Shown here in pieces: positions 2,258 to 53,809 of a DNA stretch of 64,000 bases. A program made the position numbers and the translations under genes. Numbering within the stretch: position 1 is the stretch's first letter; the number at the start of each line of letters is the position of its first letter. The stretch is from an uncultured Bacilli bacterium. Lineage in GTDB: Bacteria; Bacillota_I; Bacilli_A; RF39; UBA660. The stretch is taken from the NCBI GenBank assembly GCA_910588025.1, contig CAJUQG010000002.1:18478-82477 (forward strand), read 5' to 3'. Under the pieces are notes generated by a model that did no database searches, was not told the origin of the DNA, and saw only the letters and a program-made list of their open reading frames with translations.

Positions 2258-3106
2258 TTACTTAGTTTTAGGAACCATTTGATTTTCATTTAAGGCTTCA
2301 TAGTTTTCTGTAATGGTGATAAAAGAGGTAGGATCTATTAATTTTAACCCTGTACTTACTTTATAATAATCTGATGTTTTAATACTGCATAAAATTAATT
2401 CTGTTTTATTATTGGAATAACCACCTTTGGCTTCAAAAATGGTTACGTCATAGGATAAATCTTGCGTTAGGTATTTCTTCACTTCATTTCCTTTTTTGGT
2501 TTCTATATAAAATACTTTATGTTTATTAATTTCAAGCATAGTTTTATTACTTAAATTACTTATGAGAAGCAAAGATATAATAGAATAAATCATTTTTTCT
2601 ATTCCAAAAATAAAGCCTCCTAATAGGACAATGGAACCATCAATGTAGATCATAGATTTACTCATAGGAACTTTAAATTTTTTCTCGGCGATTTGATTTA
2701 ATATGTCAGTTCCTCCAGAAGTAAAGTTATTTTTAAATAATAAACCATAACCTATTCCACTTAGAGTTCCACCAATTATGGCAATGATTAATAATTCAAT
2801 GTCTTTTAAAACAACCCAATTATTTATGTTACTAGTTAGTTTGATAAAGATTGGAAACAAGATAGACCCTAATAATGAGTTTTTGGTTAATTCTTTTCCA
2901 AGAACAAAATAGCTTAATATTAATAATAGAATATTAGCAATTAAAATAAAGTTACTTTCCGATATCATGAATAAACTATGTAAGACAATTGCTAAACCAC
3001 TAACACCACCTGTATCAAATTGATATGGAGAAAAGAATAAGTTATAAGATATGGAAACGAAAAAAATTCCTATAATTACAATTCCGTATTTTTTGATATG
3101 TCGCAT
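2258..3106 (-). CDS. YitT-family membrane protein (DUF161/DUF2179)
   Basis: 282 aa. The N-terminal half is multi-TM and contains a GGVSGLAIV segment; the C-terminal half is soluble. This is the typical YitT/YqfU architecture. Confidence 0.6.
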   Translation of the reverse strand: MRHIKKYGIVIIGIFFVSISYNLFFSPYQFDTGGVSGLAIVLHSLFMISESNFILIANILLLILSYFVLGKELTKNSLLGSILFPIFIKLTSNINNWVVLKDIELLIIAIIGGTLSGIGYGLLFKNNFTSGGTDILNQIAEKKFKVPMSKSMIYIDGSIVLLGGFIFGIEKMIYSIISLLLISNLSNKTMLEINKHKVFYIETKKGNEVKKYLTQDLSYDVTIFEAKGGYSNNKTELILCSIKTSDYYKVSTGLKLIDPTSFITITENYEALNENQMVPKTK

Positions 3107-4195
3107 GAAATTCCCACCTTTGTTCTTAAAACAGATTCCATTATTTTTAATAGGTCTCCATCTAATATTTTATCCACATTGCTGGATTCATACCCACTTC
3201 GTAAATCTTTGATTAATTTATATGGCTCTAGTACATAATTTCTAATTTGACTACCCCATTCATTACTTTCTTGTATGCCTTTTATTTGGTTTAATTCTCG
3301 TACTTTTCTTTCTTCTTCTAATTGAAATAATTTACTTTTTAACATCTTCATTGCTTGGTCTTTATTTTTTAGTTGACTTCGCTCATTTTGACAAGTTACA
3401 ACAACTTTAGTGGGCAAATGGGTAATTCGAACAGCGGAATTTGATGTATTTACCGATTGTCCTCCAGCACCACTACTATGATATACATCAATTTTCAAGT
3501 CACTTTCTTTGATTTCTATATCGATATTCTGATTAAACTCTGGGGTAATACTTACGGAGGCAAAACTAGTATGTCTTCGTGCATTTGAGTCGAAGGGAGA
3601 AATTCTTACCAAACGATGAATGCCTTTTTCGCCTTTGAAATAACCATAAGAATAGTCTCCTTTAATTAATAAAATGGCGCTTTTAATTCCAGCTTCATCG
3701 CCTTTTTGTTCATCAATGATTTCATAAGTATAGTTGTTTTTTTCACAAAAGCGTTGATACATACGTAATAACATACTTGCCCAATCGCAAGATTCTGTTC
3801 CACCAGCACCTGGATGAATTTCTAAATAACAATTTAAATGATCAAATTTATCATTTAATAGCGTCTCAATTTCTAATTGTTCTATTTTTTCTTTTAATGA
3901 TGTAATTTCTTTTTCTAAAGAACTTATTTCGGTTTCGTCTAAAATGTTGATAAGTTCTAGGTTATCAACAAGTTCTTTTTTCACACTTAAAATAGAAGTT
4001 GTTGTTTTTTTTAAGTTAGAGCATTCTTTGTTAATAAGATTGGCGTTTTCTAAATTATCCCAAAAACCCTCTTTAGACATTTCTTGTTCTAACCATTCAA
4101 TTCTCTTCTTTTTACTTTCTAAGTCAAAGTGACCTCCCAATATCATTTACTTTATTTTGTAAATGTTCCAATAATGATTTTATTTCTGATTTCAT
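3076..4195 (-). CDS. prfB: peptide chain release factor 2, with programmed +1 ribosomal frameshift
   Basis: The main ORF (3076..4146) carries the RF2 hallmarks, including the GGQ motif (SGAGGQSVNTSNSAVRITHLPT). The upstream short frame ATG(4193-4195) MKSEIKSLLEHLQNKVNDIGRSL ends at an in-frame TGA. The site reads GGGAGG TCA CTT TGA C (plus-strand 4121-4138), which is the canonical internal SD + CUU UGA C shift site. An AGGAG RBS sits 7 nt upstream of the ATG. Confidence 0.9.
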
Positions 4196-4910: not shown

Positions 4911-5302
4911 CTATTTGAATTATAACATTTTTTAAGATTAAATTACTACTAAATACTAATTTTGTTGGAGTTTATCAATATGAATGGAAATACTTTTTTG
5001 AGCAACTAAAAACAAGAATATTAATCATTATTTATAGTAATATTATTGCTATAAATTTCATGAAACAAATATTAAGTAATCTATAATTTTATCTTTTGTA
5101 TTAATACAAATACTACTATGTAATTGAACAAATAATTGATTCAATCAACAAAATAACATTGAAGATTCATAATAAAAAACACTACAAATTATATTTAATC
5201 GTTATGATACCAATAATATTTTTTGCGTTAATGTTTAACTTTCTATCTCTTATTATATTATTTTTGTAGAATTTATTTATTGAATAAGCAAATATCTATT
5301 AT

Positions 5303-8109: not shown

Positions 8110-8145
8110 AAGAATAAACTTATCTATCTGATTACAAATATTATA

Positions 8146-8455
8146 ATAATTCTAAATATTTCCTTAACATCTCTATTTCAAGCCTTGTTATTAAGTTAAT
8201 AAAATCTGTGTAATCACCAATTGTATGTGCTTTATCTACTGCTTCGTAATATTTTAGTCTATCCTCTTTTTTTATTATTACTGGATTATATCCATGATTC
8301 ATTAAATCTAAATTCATAAGTAGCCTTGAGGTCCTACCGTTACCATCAACAAAGGAAGAATTTTAACCAATTCTCCACATAATAAGGCTTCATGAAATTC
8401 TGGAACTTTTAAATAATTAGTAGGAATATGAGTTGCACCTTTAATCATTTTATTT
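8146..8455 (-). pseudogene. Fic-family protein gene remnant (3' two-thirds, with internal deletions)
   Basis: About 85% nucleotide identity to 10440..10800, the 3' part of the intact Fic gene at 10431..11360, but with gaps and frame breaks. No intact ORF. Confidence 0.7.
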
Positions 8456-9586: not shown

Positions 9587-9636
9587 TTATCTCACTTTCC
9601 GCAGCAATTTTTGTACTTTTTGCCCGAACCACATGT
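9587..9636. repeat. imperfect direct copy of the secA 3' terminus (attachment-site repeat)
   Basis: TTATCTCACTTTCCGCAGCAATTTTTGTACTTTTTGCCCGAACCACATGT is about 38/50 identical to the true secA end at 12811..12860. On the minus strand it still encodes ...TCGSGKKYKNCCGK*, the SecA C-terminal zinc-finger tail, with synonymous changes. Confidence 0.75.
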
Positions 9637-9867
9637 TCTATCAAATTCAGTATTTATAGCACTTATGGTATTACTGGAATTATTGGTATTTTAGGGAAAA
9701 AGTGGTTCCGAAGTATCAGATATTTATGGTATTTATAGTACTATGATTACTATAAATATTTCATCCAATGGGAACAAAATGGGAACATTGTGCTCATTCG
9801 TTCACTAAATCCACTTAAATTATAAACTAAATAATAGATTCAATCAATAACAATGACAAATTGTGCT

Positions 9868-10429
9868 CTAAAAACGCCTTGATAATACACCAACAGTTCT
9901 TAATAAATCGCTTGAATTTTCATATGCATACTTTCGAACATCAAACACTATTTTTGTAAATAAACTATTAATCATTTTTACAAGTTTGATAAATGAACCA
10001 GCATATAGAGTTATCTCTTCATCATCGACTTTAAATGTATAGTCAAATAGAGATAAACTCCCACTTCCAGATGATTTTATTCTAACTCCATGCATCTTAT
10101 GTTGGTATTTATTTCTTACTTTTCTTATCTTTTCTAAAAAATCATAATTTTCTTTTAAAATTTCATTATAATCATTGCTTAAGTATTTTATCTGTTCATT
10201 GTATTCTAATAAACCATCACTGTTTTTAAATTCCAATTGTTTGGTTTTTTTGTTATATGAATATGGAATCAATCTGGGAATATTTTGAATAATTTCTAGT
10301 ATAAATTCTTCACCATTTTCAAAATCATCTATTACATCAATTCCACATAATTTTATTAATTTAATTTAAATGGTATAAAGTTTCAAAGTACCCAAAAAGT
10401 GCATTTGCTATTTCAACATTCATATGCAT
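9868..10429 (-). pseudogene. hypothetical protein with an Rx4H (HEPN-like) motif, interrupted by a +1 frame break; translationally coupled to the Fic gene
   Basis: A short frame MHMNVEIANALFGYFETLYHLN* starts at 10427-10429, 1 nt after the Fic stop. It is out of frame by +1 with the 134-aa ORF 9868..10272, which itself stays open upstream to about 10400 (IKLIKLCGIDVIDDFENGEEF...). The downstream part contains EKIRKVRNKYQHKMHG, which matches R-x4-H. Confidence 0.4.
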
Positions 10430-10430
10430 T

Positions 10431-11360
10431 TTACCTCAACAATTCTAAATATTTCTTTAATGTTTCTATTTCCAGTTTAACTATTAATTTAACAAAATCT
10501 GTATAATCACCAGTTGTATGAGCTTTATCTAATGCTTCATAATATTCTAATCTATCTTCCTTTTTTATTATTACTGGATTAAACCCATAATTCATTAAAT
10601 CTAAATTCATAAGTAACCTTGCAGTTCTACCATTACCATCTACAAATGGATGAATTTTAACTAATTCACCATGTAATAAAGCAGCTTGAATAATTGGATG
10701 AAAATCATTCCAATTTTCGTAATTTAAAACTAACTTTTCCATTAACTCTGGAACTTTCAAGTAATCTGGTGGGATATGAGTTGCACCTTTTATAGTAACA
10801 TTTTCTCTTCTATATCTTCCTGCATTTTCATCACCAATATCTTTTAAAACTAATTGATGAATACCTTTGATATTCCACTCAGTAATCGGGTTATCTTCTT
10901 TTACCAAATCGTTTAAATATAAAATAGCCTTTTCATGATTGATAGCTTCTAAATGCTCTTTTATTGATTTTCCACCAACTGTAATTCCTTCTAATACAAC
11001 TTGTGTTTCTCTAAGTGTCAAAGTATTTCCTTCTATACCATTACTATTGTATGTCCATTCAAGATTAATTGAATCTTCTAATGATCTTAATGTTTCTTTT
11101 GGTATCGGTCTTTTATTATCTAATTCTCTCTTCAACTCATCAACTTCATTAAAATAATTAGCCTCTAAATCAATAATAAATTCTGTAAAATCTGGTTTAA
11201 TAACTCTTTTGTCTACTGGTTTTATTGCATCAACTGGAATATTCCAACTGTTTCCGTTTTTAACAGCTCCTTCAATCCTGCCATCTTGTAATAATTGCCT
11301 TATTCTTCTTTCACTAATATTCCATTTTTTTACAGCTTCTTTAGTAGTCATAAAATCCAA
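10431..11360 (-). CDS. Fic-family protein (class II: N-terminal HTH plus SxxxEG inhibitory motif plus Fic core)
   Basis: Fic motif HPFVDGNGRTARLL. The inhibitory-helix motif is TYNSNGIEGNTLT. The N-terminal ~55 aa look like an excisionase-type HTH (MDFMTTKEAVKKWNISERRIRQLLQDGRIEGAV). Confidence 0.85.
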   Translation of the reverse strand: MDFMTTKEAVKKWNISERRIRQLLQDGRIEGAVKNGNSWNIPVDAIKPVDKRVIKPDFTEFIIDLEANYFNEVDELKRELDNKRPIPKETLRSLEDSINLEWTYNSNGIEGNTLTLRETQVVLEGITVGGKSIKEHLEAINHEKAILYLNDLVKEDNPITEWNIKGIHQLVLKDIGDENAGRYRRENVTIKGATHIPPDYLKVPELMEKLVLNYENWNDFHPIIQAALLHGELVKIHPFVDGNGRTARLLMNLDLMNYGFNPVIIKKEDRLEYYEALDKAHTTGDYTDFVKLIVKLEIETLKKYLELLR

Positions 11361-11426
11361 AACGCTTCACCTCTATATATCATTATACCGCTAACGGTAG
11401 TTTTGGTCAACCATATAAGACTAATT

Positions 11427-12631
11427 TTATCTATATTTAATAATTTCATCTATAATATCTGATTTAACTGTTTGTTCAAATTTTTCACTTGCTTCTTTAA
11501 GTGTTTCATCAGTTGTTGATATATAATAATTTTCAGTAGCTTCTATCTTGCTATGCCCTAAAATGTCAGCTACATCTCTAATTTCTACACCATTTCTTAG
11601 ACTCTTTGTTGCATAACTTCCTCGTAAGTCATAGAATCTGCAATGTTCTATTCCCAATTCTGTATGAACCACTTTATATGGATATTTCATAATATCAGTT
11701 CCACTATAAACACCATTTTCTTTTCTAAATACTAAATCAAGATTTTCCAACAATTTAGCTTTTCTAACTGTTTCAACAATTCTATATTCTATTATTTTTC
11801 CATATTTATTTTTAACTTCTTCTAGATGATAATAGTGATACATTTTACCATATAACTTTTTAAAATTTTCTTGTTTCCTTTTATAATTTTTTAGAGCTAC
11901 TAATAAAGTATTACAAATATATACTTTTCTTACTCCATTTATTGTTTTTGTTGTACCTAAAAACCATTTCCCCTTTTCATCTTTAACTTTACTATAAACA
12001 TTATGCTCTATACTAATTATTCTCTTTTCAAGATCAATATTATCCCAAGTTAGTGCACAGACTTCACCGGTTCTCATTCCTGTAAAACATGCAACTAGAA
12101 ATGCACAGGTGAATGTTTCATTATTTTTAAATCTCTTTAAAATAAAATTCAATTTCTTCTTGAGTATAAATATGCCTTATAGTCTTTCTTTAATTGTTCT
12201 ATGTGCGGCAAACTTATAGTTATTGCTGGATTATAATTAATAAATCCAAATATATCAGTTGCAACTCTAAATGAACATTTTATTACTTTTACAAAATTTT
12301 TTAAATATCCATAAGAATAATCATATCTTCTACATACATCTATTAAATATTTATTTAACTGATAACTTGTAATTGCATTAAGTCTATAATGACCTAAATA
12401 AATCTTTAAATACTTATTAACAATAACTGAATACTCTTCTATTGTTCTATATTTTAAATTCACTTTGCAATAATTATCTAGCCAATAATCCAAATAATCT
12501 CCATATGACATATAGCTTTCCGTTTTACATCCTCCATTTTGATATTCATCATAAGCTTTTTGTCCTGCGGTAAATGCAGCATTTTTTGTTTTAAATCCAC
12601 TTTCTTTTTCCATTAACTTTTGTTGCTTCAA
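11427..12631 (-). pseudogene. tyrosine site-specific integrase, split by a frameshift into an N-terminal part (12149..12631) and a catalytic part (11427..12152)
   Basis: The catalytic domain has R (FTGMRTGEV), H-x-x-R (HCRFYDLRGSYAT) and the Tyr region (LGHSKIEATENYYI). The N-terminal ORF is a SAM-like core-binding domain. The two frames overlap at an AAGAAGAAA tract near 12149-12165. Confidence 0.7.
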
Positions 12632-12679
12632 AGCGATATTGATACACCTTTCCTCTTTTTTGAATACTAATCATTTTTA

Positions 12680-12760
12680 TCATCTCCCTTTCATTTTTTG
12701 ATTAGTTTTTACTAAAACAAAAAGGAATGTTAACATTTTATCTATGTTAACACTCCTTTG
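12680..12760. repeat. ~50-bp direct repeat, copy 2 (with an internal GTTAACA duplication), between the integrase start and the secA stop
   Basis: Matches 8468..8530 and contains ATGTTAACATTTTATCTATGTTAACAC. Confidence 0.7.
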
Positions 12761-12812
12761 TTTATAAGTATTTTAGCTATTTATTTTTTAATTTTAGCTA
12801 AACTTTTTTATG

Positions 12813-15299
12813 CTACTTTCCACAACAATTCTTATATTTCTTTCCTGAACCACATGGACAAGTATCATTTCTTCCTATTTTCTTATCATTTTTGACAGTA
12901 TGACCAACTTTTTCTTTTCCATCGTTGGAAGAACCTTTTATTACTTGTTTTCTTTCAATATTTTGTTCAATTTCGGCTTTTAATAAGAATTGTGCTACAT
13001 CGCTATCTATTTTATCTAATAGACGTTCAAATAGTTCGTAACCTTCCATGGTATATGCTTGAAGGGGATTGGTTTGACCATATCCTCTTAACATAATTCC
13101 GTCTTTTAAATGTTCCATTTCATTTAGGTGATTTACCCATAAAGAATCAATTACACGTAATGTAATGGCTTTCTCAAATTCTTCGAAAGCTGGAGCATCT
13201 TTAATTTTCTCTTCATAATCATCGTTAATTTTATTAAATAATAAATCAATAATTTCTTCTTCGCTCTTATCTTTTAATTCTTCTACAGATAGTTTTTCAC
13301 CTTTGATAAAATTAGAATTTACATATTCGATAATTTCTTGTTTATCATTATCTGTTAAATATCCTTCTGGAGCTATATGACTTTCAATTATATTGGTAAT
13401 CGTATTTTTGAAGGTATCTTTTATATTTTCATGAATACTTTCTAGTTCTAATACTTCATTTCTTTTTTCATAAATAATTAAGCGTTGTTCATTTACTACA
13501 TTGTCATAGTCTAATAAACTTTTACGCATATCGAAGTTATTTCCTTCAACTTTCTTTTGGGCTGATTCAATACTTCTAGTTAATGATTTGGAACGAATTG
13601 CTTGACTTCCTACCATTCCTAAAGCTTCAACCATTCTTTTTACTTTATCTGTTCCAAAACGGCGCATTAATTCATCTTCAAAAGATACAAAGAATTGACT
13701 CATTCCTGGATCACCTTGACGTCCAGCACGTCCACGTAATTGGTTATCAATACGACGAGATTCATGACGCTCTGTACCAATAACACAAAGTCCACCAAGT
13801 TCTTTTACACCTTCTCCAAGTTTAATATCTGTTCCACGACCTGCCATATTGGTAGCAATTGTAATTGCTCCCTTTTCTCCCGCTTTCGCAATGATTTCAG
13901 CTTCACGAGCATGATTTTTAGCATTTAATATTTCATGTTTTAATTTAGCTTTTGTAAGTAATGAACCTAAATATTCGTTTGCTTCTACAGAGATTGTACC
14001 CACTAAGATTGGTTGTCCAGTTTCATGAATTTCTTTAATTGTATTTACAATTGCTTCATATTTACCAGCCATATTAGAATATAATAAATCGGCACGGTCT
14101 TCACGAATTACTGGCTTGTTCGTTGGAATTTGAATAACATACATGTTGTAAATATTTCTAAATTCTTCTTCTTCTGTTTTTGCAGTACCTGTCATACCAG
14201 ATAATTTTTTATACATTCTAAATAAGTTTTGGAATGTAATCGTTGCCATTGTTCTAGTTTCTTCATTTATTTTAACATTTTCTTTGGCTTCTATTGCTTG
14301 ATGTAATCCTTCGCTAAATTGACGACCTTTCATTAAACGTCCAGTAAATTGATCTACAATAATTACTTCATTGTTATCTACAACATAATCTACATCTTTT
14401 TTAAAAGCATAATTTGCCTTTAGAGCTTGATTTACATGATGAACTAATGCTGAATTTTCTAAATCATATAAATTTTTGATATGAAAATATTGTTCAACTT
14501 TTGCAACACCTTTTTCCATTAAAGAGGTATTTTTAGTTTTTGGATCAAAATCATAATCTTCATTTTCAACTAAATTTTGAACAGCGGCATTTGCATCCAT
14601 ATATAAATCTTTTGTATTTGATTTACCTCCAGAAATAATTAAAGGAGTACGAGCTTCATCAATTAAAATTGAGTCAACTTCATCGACAATACAAAAGTTT
14701 AATGGTCTTTGAACACGGTCTGCTGCTTGAACTACCATATTATCTCTTAAATAGTCGAACCCTATTTCACTATTCGTAGAATATAAAATATCTGCATTGT
14801 ATGCTTCTTGTTTTTCTTTTGGACTCATTTCACGTAAATTTAAGCCTATTGTTAAGCCTAAAAATTCAAAAATGCTACCCATCCATTCAGAGTCACGTTT
14901 GGCAAGGAATTCGTTTACTGTTACGATATGAACACCTTCACCAGTTAAAGCATTTAAATAAGCTGGCATGGTTTCTGTTAAGGTTTTTCCTTCTCCAGTT
15001 TTCATTTCGGCAATATTACCATAATGAATGGCAAGTCCTCCTAAAATTTGGACAAAATAAGGCTTTTCTCCAATTACACGATAATCCGCTTCTCTTACTA
15101 CTGCATAAGCTTCGACTAAAATATCATCTAAAGTTTCTCCATTTGCTAATCTTTCTTTTAATTCGCTTGTTTTATTTTTTAGTTCTTCATCAGATAATTT
15201 GCTCATTGTTTCTTCTAAAGCAACTACTTCATTTGCTAAAACTTCGAATCTTTTTAATTCTTTATATTCTGAGTCGATTAATTTTCTAAATAATCCCAT
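12813..15299 (-). CDS. secA: preprotein translocase ATPase SecA
   Basis: 828 aa spanning the full SecA domain set, with the C-terminal zinc-binding tail CPCGSGKKYKNCCGK. Confidence 0.95.
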   Translation of the reverse strand: MGLFRKLIDSEYKELKRFEVLANEVVALEETMSKLSDEELKNKTSELKERLANGETLDDILVEAYAVVREADYRVIGEKPYFVQILGGLAIHYGNIAEMKTGEGKTLTETMPAYLNALTGEGVHIVTVNEFLAKRDSEWMGSIFEFLGLTIGLNLREMSPKEKQEAYNADILYSTNSEIGFDYLRDNMVVQAADRVQRPLNFCIVDEVDSILIDEARTPLIISGGKSNTKDLYMDANAAVQNLVENEDYDFDPKTKNTSLMEKGVAKVEQYFHIKNLYDLENSALVHHVNQALKANYAFKKDVDYVVDNNEVIIVDQFTGRLMKGRQFSEGLHQAIEAKENVKINEETRTMATITFQNLFRMYKKLSGMTGTAKTEEEEFRNIYNMYVIQIPTNKPVIREDRADLLYSNMAGKYEAIVNTIKEIHETGQPILVGTISVEANEYLGSLLTKAKLKHEILNAKNHAREAEIIAKAGEKGAITIATNMAGRGTDIKLGEGVKELGGLCVIGTERHESRRIDNQLRGRAGRQGDPGMSQFFVSFEDELMRRFGTDKVKRMVEALGMVGSQAIRSKSLTRSIESAQKKVEGNNFDMRKSLLDYDNVVNEQRLIIYEKRNEVLELESIHENIKDTFKNTITNIIESHIAPEGYLTDNDKQEIIEYVNSNFIKGEKLSVEELKDKSEEEIIDLLFNKINDDYEEKIKDAPAFEEFEKAITLRVIDSLWVNHLNEMEHLKDGIMLRGYGQTNPLQAYTMEGYELFERLLDKIDSDVAQFLLKAEIEQNIERKQVIKGSSNDGKEKVGHTVKNDKKIGRNDTCPCGSGKKYKNCCGK

Positions 15300-26159: not shown

Positions 26160-26702
26160 ATTTTATCAAGAAAAAAGATTCTTTTTAAGAACCTTTTAAG
26201 CTACAATGGTTTTTGTTGTGGTAAATTATAAATTAATTTTACGGCTTAGGTCGAGTTGAATTTCTCTACTTTCTACCTTTGGTTACCCGAGGGCGATTTC
26301 TCTTTCAAGAAAGCAACTAAGTGTTACCAGCTTAATTACTCGATTACCACTGAGTCCGCACTTTAATCCTTATAATTATAACATTCTAGAGGTTTTCCCT
26401 GACACCCACTATCCAATACTTATTCGCTTTTGCAAATACGATTTTGATAATCATCTATTTGATCGGGAATAGACTTTATTCATTATCTCCCACGTATTCA
26501 CTCACGACATGCACTTTTTTTATTTCTTGCGGGATTTTAGGAGATTCATTATATGCCATTATAACTTTCCTAAAATCTTAAATTATATAACCACCCCAAC
26601 TTGGGCAGAAGAAGCGAATTATATAAAGTGCTTTTCATGCAATTGGTAGATTTTTAGCCCTACCTTCATATTGTGTGTGTGACTAGAATAATGCACCACA
26701 TG
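26160..26702 (-). ncRNA. large structured noncoding RNA candidate (~525 nt, about 40% GC versus about 27% in the flanks), possibly an OLE-type RNA
   Basis: No ORF longer than 26 codons on either strand. GC is locally elevated (for example GGTTACCCGAGGGCGATTTC, CCACTGAGTCCGCAC). A consensus sigma-A promoter lies at its 5' end and a terminator at its 3' end. It sits immediately upstream of a 4-TM DxxxD protein. Confidence 0.45.
26168..26197 (-). terminator. intrinsic terminator/attenuator at the 3' end of the large noncoding transcript, just upstream of the membrane-protein RBS
   Basis: Minus strand GGTTCTT-AAA-AAGAATC followed by TTTTTT: a 7-bp stem with one G·U pair. Confidence 0.55.
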
Positions 26703-26709
26703 ACAATGA

Positions 26710-26738
26710 ATTATACACTATTTTTACTTTTTTGTCAA
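26710..26738 (-). promoter_or_regulatory. consensus sigma-A promoter TTGACA-N17-TATAAT driving the large ncRNA/leader
   Basis: Minus strand: TTGACA aaaaagtaaaaatagtg TATAAT. The -35 hexamer is plus-strand 26733-26738 and the -10 hexamer is 26710-26715. Confidence 0.7.
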
Positions 26739-53677: not shown

Positions 53678-53715
53678 TATAGTTGATAAATATATTTATT
53701 TTTGATAGAATTTAT

Positions 53716-53797
53716 TTGTGCAACAAATATATTGCAAAATGGTCAGGATCGGAAGATAGCAGCCAATGTAATCCCTATTTGTGTGCACTTTTTTTAT
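53716..53797 (+). ncRNA. ffs: small (4.5S-type) signal recognition particle RNA
   Basis: The hairpin GTGCAACAAATA...TATTTGTGTGCAC encloses GGTCAGGATCGGAAGATAGCAGCC, which matches the SRP domain-IV consensus GUCAGGUCCGGAAGGAAGCAGCC. A T-run follows. Confidence 0.65.
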
Positions 53798-53809
53798 TGA
53801 AGGTGAAGT

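Follow-up and report, generated by a model that had tools for sequence, protein, structure and literature searches.

Gene content of the element

We analyzed a 64,000-nucleotide stretch of contig CAJUQG010000002.1 (the window) from an uncultured low-GC gut member of the Bacillota. A small, roughly 3.2-kb integrative element occupies positions 9592–12854 of the window (minus strand), where it has inserted into the secA 3′ end. It carries, in this order, an integrase gene, Fic, and a gene of a family of about 208 amino acids (aa), to which we gave the name H208. The Fic gene is intact, and the integrase and H208 copies are pseudogenes. The features of the element, all on the minus strand, are listed below.

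12813–12854 (−): attL, the secA 3′ end, codons CGSGKKYKNCCGK and stop; left boundary of the mobile element
11427–12683 (−): tyrosine-recombinase (integrase) pseudogene in three frame pieces, which match Pfam Phage_int_SAM_3 and Phage_integrase
11382–11410 (−): promoter-like site TTGACC-17-TATAAT upstream of Fic, between integrase and Fic; 11 of 12 consensus positions
10431–11360 (−): intact Fic gene, 309 aa, recognized by its Pfam Fic match, motifs and conservation
9868–10423 (−): H208-family pseudogene, with an RNKYQHKMH motif at nt 10090–10116
10360–10363 (−): inactivating lesion at codon 21, TAAA for CAAAAA of the intact allele
9901–9924 (−): place where 69 nt were deleted in frame; the junction, ...GAAAATTCA followed by AGCGAT..., is at about 9912
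9592–9633 (−): attR, duplicated remnant of the secA 3′ end (CGSGKKYKNCCGK and stop); right boundary of the element

The Fic core (PF02661) was matched at residues 158–253 with 88.4 bits, against a cut-off of 24. The catalytic motif HPFVDGNGRTAR (residues 237–248, nt 10617–10652) conforms to HxFx(D/E)GNGRxxR, and an SNGIEG inhibitory motif (residues 106–111, nt 11028–11045) lies about 130 residues before it. Class II Fic proteins, as Engel and colleagues reportedly defined them in 2012, have the inhibitory (S/T)xxxE(G/N) motif on the N-terminal side of the core within one chain. A preliminary description of this DNA, made from its letters without database searches, had assigned the protein to this class and had placed an excisionase-type helix-turn-helix (HTH) at its N-terminus. 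Both assignments were borne out, the second by matches to HTH_17 at residues 3–46 (nt 11223–11354; 24.1 bits, slightly under the cut-off of 27) and to the NCBIfam model "excise" (E = 3e-4). As read from its motifs, the window Fic protein has the class II layout with intact motifs and an N-terminal HTH, and it is predicted to be an autoinhibited AMP-transferase. The ratio of nonsynonymous to synonymous substitution rates (dN/dS) of Fic was 0.04–0.10, indicating strong purifying selection, and the protein is 100% identical in 14 independent assemblies (L052–L065) that match the window at 99.9–100% identity over up to 4.7 kb. Of 8,000 candidates scored against Fic, 7,975 reached E ≤ 1e-20, and the 120 clusters listed all share at least 88% identity with the window protein; by these counts the Fic family is far larger than the H208 family.

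The promoter-like site between integrase and Fic probably acts as the Fic promoter. A palindrome, TACCG-N4-CGGTA, lies at 11386–11399, between its −35 and −10 hexamers. Across five genomic contexts the hexamers, the palindrome arms and the ribosome-binding site were invariant and the palindrome loop was variable; the palindrome is a candidate operator, perhaps bound by the HTH of Fic itself.

At the downstream junction, the Fic stop codon (TAA, 10433–10431) is followed after one base by an ATG at 10429, which agrees with the stop/start coupling proposed in the preliminary description. The homologues, in contrast, all start at a second ATG (10423, MNVEIAN...), 7 nt past the Fic stop, and the same 7-nt spacer was found in L008 and L013. 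A GAGG in the last two Fic codons is 10 nt upstream of ATG 10423, placing the predicted ribosome-binding site of H208 within the last codons of Fic.

The H208 family

With the merged conceptual product of the broken gene as query, 178 homologues were retrieved (E ≤ 0.01), the majority being 208 aa long. An exhaustive profile search yielded about 272 clusters at 50% identity, nearly all consisting of stand-alone proteins of 205–220 aa. None of the 178 homologues carried a Pfam annotation, and the named records all read "hypothetical protein". The family dN/dS of 0.13–0.27 indicates purifying selection, which together with the 178 homologues argues that H208 is a conserved gene and not a chance open reading frame (ORF). 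A tblastn search with an intact relative, P0002, found no match in plasmid and phage collections. When 94 representatives were profiled against a set of 5.8 billion proteins, the same unannotated family was recovered, with no Pfam-annotated HEPN bridge among the 120 listed. The family profile gave chance matches only (E ≥ 0.4) to PDB chain sequences, and Foldseek searches of PDB and BFVD returned nothing at E ≤ 0.001 and no specific HEPN fold match.

An AlphaFold (AF2) model of P0002 had a predicted local distance difference test score (pLDDT) of 86.7 and a predicted template modelling score (pTM) of 0.87. In this model, long helices at 3–27 and 35–52 are followed by a β-hairpin with short helices, helix 94–109, a three-stranded sheet, a long helix 142–169, and three short C-terminal helices. 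Conservation was scored over 94 diverse representatives, among which N20 and H109 were invariant. Y12, P54, G71, R104 (98%), N105 (93%), K106, H112 and N153 were 93–99% conserved, L16 and N190 were at 90%, and E108 was at 80%. The resulting signature, R-N-K-x-E-H-x-x-H, stands at the end of the third long helix (94–109); Y107 inside it is not conserved family-wide.

In HEPN proteins, helix 3 ends with an Rx4-6H motif whose arginine is in most cases followed by N, D or H, and helices 2 and 3 are often separated by inserts (Anantharaman et al. 2013, PMC3710099). In the predicted structure, H208 fits all three points. Both H208 consensus sequences had HEPN_LA2681 as their top Pfam match (E = 1.4e-3 and 3.8e-3, sub-threshold), with H208 residues 82–159 aligned to profile positions 127–200 of 204, and one family member, P0093, reached 23.6 bits (E = 3.9e-5), the cut-off being 27. 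Over the motif helix, matches to HEPN_Apea, AbiU2, Abi_C and pEK499_p136 recurred at E values of 0.01–0.1, all below threshold. The preliminary description had likened the R-x4-H spacing to that of HEPN RNases of Abi-type proteins. The likeness held in that the spacing is nearly invariant and the best Pfam matches are HEPN models; it did not extend to scores above the gathering threshold or to a specific fold match. Based on these sequence features, H208 is probably a divergent HEPN family, closest to the LA2681-like family.

Alternatively, H208 could be a helical protein that does something else, for example regulation, sensing or the work of an adaptor, and its R-x4-H motif would then be coincidental or serve a different chemistry. 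The sub-threshold Pfam scores point in this direction, as do the extra β elements and the conserved C-terminal extension (N190), which are foreign to the canonical HEPN core. We nevertheless regard this alternative as unlikely, since no other feature of the family is as strongly conserved as the motif, which lies where a HEPN motif would be expected and has the expected polar residue behind its arginine, five HEPN models recur as the best weak matches on the same helix, and the genomic contexts agree with those described for HEPN families (PMC3710099).

A few relatives are extended at the N-terminus. P0226 (433 aa) has N-terminal tetratricopeptide repeats (TPR) followed by the C-terminal half of H208, and P0160 (308 aa) and P0249 (306 aa) have N-terminal extensions of about 100 aa. 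Pfam scans of these extended relatives detected TPR in P0226 only and nothing in P0160 or P0249.

Pairing of Fic and H208 across genomes

The 309-aa HTH-Fic gene was found directly upstream of H208, with the 7-nt spacer, in three lineages (the window with L001, L008–L012, and L013–L017). Between the window and L008, DNA identity is 85–98% from the integrase through H208, collapses at both ends, and stops just past the H208 stop codon. Synonymous divergence (dS) over the same comparison is 0.45 for Fic and 0.46 for H208. The equal dS shows that the two genes were inherited as a unit, and the identity block ending at both sides adds the integrase to what travels together.

Other upstream partners were also observed. 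Full-length SoFic-like Fic genes precede H208 in L037 (17-nt gap; PADLOC SoFic, E = 1.6e-45) and L046 (103-nt gap; 2.3e-38), and RhuM precedes it in L026 and L027. H208 also follows an MmeI-type enzyme (L036, 17 nt), HsdS of a type I restriction-modification (R-M) system (L039, 8 nt), PDC-S53 (L025) and DUF4062 (L033), and it stands directly behind an integrase in L002 and L018–L024. Further copies lie near Cas9, GmrSD-like, NERD and Schlafen genes. These neighbourhoods fit the pattern in which HEPN genes are linked to R-M, Fic/DOC and RhuM genes (Anantharaman et al. 2013, PMC3710099). A literature search on a Fic–HEPN pair found nothing specific.

Most of the roughly 33 H208 contexts had no adjacent Fic gene. 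Conversely, a 91%-identical Fic stands alone beside rpsO-pnp, with the integrase 3′ end and the promoter still upstream. A 92%-identical Fic at secA is followed after 18 nt by a gene for a 628-aa OLD/AriA/GajA-like ATPase-TOPRIM protein (L074:4446–6332; also L075–L081), and the presence of this OLD-like gene in the place of H208 shows that the gene downstream of Fic is swappable. The pairing of Fic and H208 is thus recurrent but facultative. The candidate toxin/defence pair of the preliminary description stands as an operonic, co-inherited arrangement and fails as an obligate pairing.

We rejected an obligate toxin–antitoxin pair, as each gene occurs without the other adjacent and Fic is intact beside a dead H208. 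The partners of a type II toxin–antitoxin module are obligatory neighbours, which Fic and H208 are not. Loss of a partner from such a module is not tolerated, and here a fixed H208 pseudogene lies beside a motif-intact Fic in 14 assemblies. The dead H208 next to an intact, conserved Fic argues that neither gene is the antitoxin of the other.

Proposed mechanism

The reading that we favour, at a probability of roughly 60%, is that of a decaying 3.2-kb element whose intact cassette would encode two independent, co-expressed defence or toxin modules, of which only Fic is left in the window. In the intact cassette, Fic and H208 would act as two autonomous effectors, the Fic arm as a protein AMP-transferase and the H208 arm as a putative metal-independent RNase using R104, N105 and H109. 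Neither arm would be the antitoxin of the other, and together, as cargo of a defence-island hotspot, they would provide two-pronged defence or abortive infection. In the window, the Fic arm alone would still be able to work.

Several points weigh against this reading. No H208 protein matched any HEPN model above its curated cut-off (best, 23.6 versus 27 bits), and H208 matched no PADLOC model save for one weak CARF_HEPN hit (E = 0.0034). The independence of the two modules is deduced from gene neighbourhoods. For H208 copies that lack an adjacent Fic gene, a Fic protein encoded elsewhere in the genome might act in trans. The occurrence of three independent Fic architectures upstream of H208 hints at a functional link beyond co-location.

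A further reading is that of a latent RNase. H208 would then be a new, divergent HEPN-type back-up or guard effector, coupled to the first-line defence gene upstream of it (Fic/SoFic, RhuM or R-M) and controlled by release or by Fic AMPylation. Conceivably, the RNase would be released once a phage disables the upstream protein, by analogy with PrrC and EcoprrI, or Fic-linked H208 would be held inactive by Fic AMPylation, by analogy with MNT-HEPN systems. We consider this reading quite improbable.

Another alternative is a direct dependence of the toxin–antitoxin type, in which H208 neutralizes Fic, or Fic AMPylates the HEPN-like RNase and thereby keeps it inactive. In MNT-HEPN systems, a nucleotidyltransferase AMPylates the HEPN toxin. 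The tight coupling with a 7-nt spacer kept in three lineages, the co-divergence at equal dS, the presence of Fic-type genes of three architectures and of RhuM directly upstream of H208 in independent lineages, and the described linkage of HEPN to Fic/DOC and RhuM (PMC3710099) are all consistent with such a dependence. Nonetheless, Fic is evidently tolerated alone, being intact and identical in 14 assemblies in which H208 is dead; it has its own inhibitory SxxxEG motif and is found solo or with an OLD-like partner. H208 for its part often lacks an adjacent Fic, and the tyrosine within its motif (Y107) is not conserved across the family. A dependence of this kind therefore seems very unlikely to us, and two independent modules remain the preferred reading.

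Nature of the break in the window H208 copy

As the preliminary description had stated, the gene downstream of Fic is split at AAT-TAA with an open +1 frame. A short ORF of 22 codons (10429–10361) ends in TAA at 10363–10361, and the main (+1) frame, which contains EKIRKVRNKYQHKMHG, is open from 10365 down to 9868. The merged conceptual product is 186 aa from the first ATG, in place of the 187 aa given earlier, and 184 aa from the conserved ATG. A metagenomic contig (L001), which shares 99% identity with the window along 823 nt, has AAAT-CAAAAA-TTAA in place of the AAAT-TAAA-TTAA of the window, and the homologues across the break all read ...TLYxLN-Q-KLIKLCG..., with an in-frame CAA. The codon-21 lesion thus comprises a TAA stop and the loss of 2 nt, and it is identical in the 14 assemblies. 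The 69-nt deletion (23 codons) removed family residues 171–193, including F186, F189 and N190, which are conserved in 72–90% of the 94 representatives; it is common to the window and to the otherwise intact allele P0001 of L001. The two lesions together mean that H208 took at least two hits in the window lineage. The window copy of H208 is a fixed pseudogene, and the break is decay.

Of the three explanations raised in the preliminary description, decay is the one that held, given the 99%-identical intact allele. A programmed +1 recoding site, with a slip at AAU-UAA-A yielding the full-length protein minus Gln21, would resemble the logic of prfB in having a stop codon in the A site and an open +1 frame, and the lesion is fixed in many samples. 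Recoding is implausible, however, because the site lacks conservation and stands in place of an in-frame Gln codon; neither the 99%-identical allele nor any other homologue has it. In addition, no Shine–Dalgarno-like stimulator was found upstream of the site, the Asn-tRNA would be expected to re-pair poorly on AUU, this H208 copy also lacks 23 conserved residues, and the adjacent integrase is decayed too; we give this explanation hardly any weight. A sequencing or assembly artefact, for which the A/T-rich site near short repeats (AAATT AAATT) might speak, is excluded for practical purposes because the same lesion occurs in 14 assemblies from different runs, projects and assemblers (several SRR series, three GenBank metagenome-assembled genomes and one Joint Genome Institute metagenome), and the change is complex (a substitution and a 2-nt loss), unlike a homopolymer miscount.

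The integrase and the secA-end cassette arrays

The attL segment at 12813–12854 has a direct repeat at 9592–9633, and the same secA-end repeat delimits successive cassettes in L002, L018, L020 and L022. The repeat corresponds to the last 14 or so codons of secA (CGSGKKYK[NQ]CCGK and stop) and was seen at 2139, 3088, 6844 and 12358 in L020 and at 2287, 5544 and 8833 in L002. The presence of these repeats at the cassette boundaries implies that the integrases target the secA 3′ end, building tandem arrays of mini-islands between secA and prfB. The cargo of the arrays is varied and includes H208, Fic, type IIG restriction-modification, KilA-N and aminoacyl-tRNA-synthetase paralogues, among others. 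The synthetase paralogues (tRNA-synt_2b, tRNA-synt_1b) are stand-alone genes (L018:3393–4661, L020:3664–4656) and may be antibiotic or toxin resistance genes.

The window integrase is dead. It carries at least three lesions, namely an N-terminal frameshift (12591–12683 versus 12149–12631), a lost A run and an indel after ...EEIEF. The A run is mutated to AAAGAAAG with one base missing, and two frameshifts are present in addition to this mutated run. The relevant sites are as follows.

12175–12196 (−): destroyed slippery run of the integrase, window CAATTAAAGAAAGAC versus ..TTAAAAAAAAG/C... in relatives
L018:5196–5226, L008:2990–3016, L002:7190–7219, L024, L026, L074: intact integrase A8 copies

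In the relatives, the catalytic domain is without exception encoded in the −1 frame, with an A8 run at the junction (..TTA AAA AAA AC/G..; A_AAA_AAA). The run sits between the SAM-like and catalytic domains, and the −1 frame opens just before it. About ten integrase lineages were sampled, with 42 junction calls and 18 distinct sequences extracted, and none of these was an in-frame A9 variant. The sole exception to A8 among the sampled junctions of this type was one decayed copy with A7, and single-frame junctions were found only in a paralogue that lacks the A run. This pattern points to programmed −1 frameshifting or transcriptional slippage at the A8 junction. Mere decay was rejected as an explanation for the split integrases of the relatives, as the same −1 offset at A8 recurs in divergent copies; in the window, by contrast, the split is decay, since the A run itself is mutated. 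Literature searches on frameshifted tyrosine recombinases and on secA/prfB islands found nothing specific.

Other features of the window

The flanking housekeeping genes secA, hpf and tilS are full-length ORFs. In prfB (listed ORF 3076–4146), a CTTTGAC at 4123–4129 (−), just inside the 5′ end, matches the canonical +1 frameshift motif of release factor 2 and is an ordinary feature of that gene. A second Fic sequence was also present.

8141–8448 (−): second, diverged Fic remnant, 3′ part only, frameshifted; adjoins KilA-N

This remnant has 84–85% DNA identity to the 3′ part of the intact Fic gene, and its 44-aa and 58-aa ORFs are found again in L060 and L074. In L074–L081 the same remnant comes after the Fic–OLD cassette. 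Around 5029–5151 and 9730–9850 lie two pairs of imperfect direct repeats, one of 28 nt at 89% and one of 22 nt at 91%, both with a spacing of about 4.7 kb; they bracket the KilA-N gene, the Fic remnant, LysR and DUF2099, and may mark where a second inserted segment ends on either side. Elsewhere in the window, a full-length ornate large extremophilic (OLE) RNA was detected at 26202–26715 (−; 242.7 bits against a gathering score of 50), and a signal recognition particle RNA at 53707–53804 (+).

Significance

For the window, these results identify the broken gene as a genuine, population-fixed pseudogene in a decaying mini-island, and neither as a recoding signal nor as an assembly error. More generally, they define a small unannotated family that has no Pfam model or structural relative, bears HEPN hallmarks, and is confined to defence-type neighbourhoods of gut Bacillota. 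What is new is this family, probably of HEPN type, within a known theme; its copy in the window is non-functional. The repeated position of H208 behind Fic/SoFic, RhuM and R-M genes extends the HEPN–Fic/DOC/RhuM theme of 2013 to a minimal stand-alone protein. The window provides a natural H208 knock-out, which argues that Fic needs no partner, and intact alleles have been identified, such as P0002 with its Fic in L008. The secA-end integrases, which appear to need a −1 shift at A8 and to build tandem cassette arrays, are possibly notable in their own right.

Comparison with known systems

The neighbourhoods described for HEPN proteins of the PrrC/RloC type (PMC3710099) resemble those of H208 in several respects. 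H208 shares the R-x4-H motif with a polar residue after the arginine at the predicted end of helix 3, comes last after R-M (MmeI, HsdS), Fic or RhuM genes, and is located in a mobile defence island. It differs in being small (about 208 aa), stand-alone and devoid of an ABC-ATPase domain, in having no significant sequence match to PrrC/RloC, and in that many copies follow an integrase only. Among Pfam families, LA2681-like HEPN (PF18733) is the best match for the consensus sequences and for P0093, the alignment spanning the motif-bearing helix 3 to helix 4 (profile positions 127–202 of 204), and the TPR fusion in P0226 is an architecture listed for LA2681. However, the scores are 17–24 bits against a cut-off of 27, only the C-terminal third of the model aligns, and H208 remains unmatched in its N-terminal half and its C-terminal extension.

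The core and inhibitory-helix region of the window Fic match PADLOC SoFic (E = 5e-36), the single-gene Fic defence system of PADLOC and DefenseFinder, and full-length SoFic-like genes stand upstream of H208 in L037 and L046. In contrast to SoFic, the window Fic covers only profile positions 41–270 of 361, has an N-terminal excisionase-type HTH, and reaches 36 bits with the NCBIfam SoFic equivalog, whose cut-off is 550, so that it falls short of a full-length SoFic; the PADLOC candidate model PDC-S04 fits it equally well. The class I FicT/FicA (VbhT/VbhA) modules likewise are two-gene operons that include a Fic enzyme and follow the inhibitory SxxxE(G/N) logic. In the window Fic, the inhibitory motif lies within its own chain, as in the class II layout, so that an antitoxin would not be needed, and the partner is downstream, much larger, HEPN-like and dispensable. 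Lastly, the enzyme here is a Fic protein and not a minimal nucleotidyltransferase, H208 lacks the tyrosine of Rx4HxY, and the pairing is facultative, yet the arrangement shares with MNT-HEPN the pairing of a probable HEPN-type protein with an enzyme predicted to AMPylate proteins.

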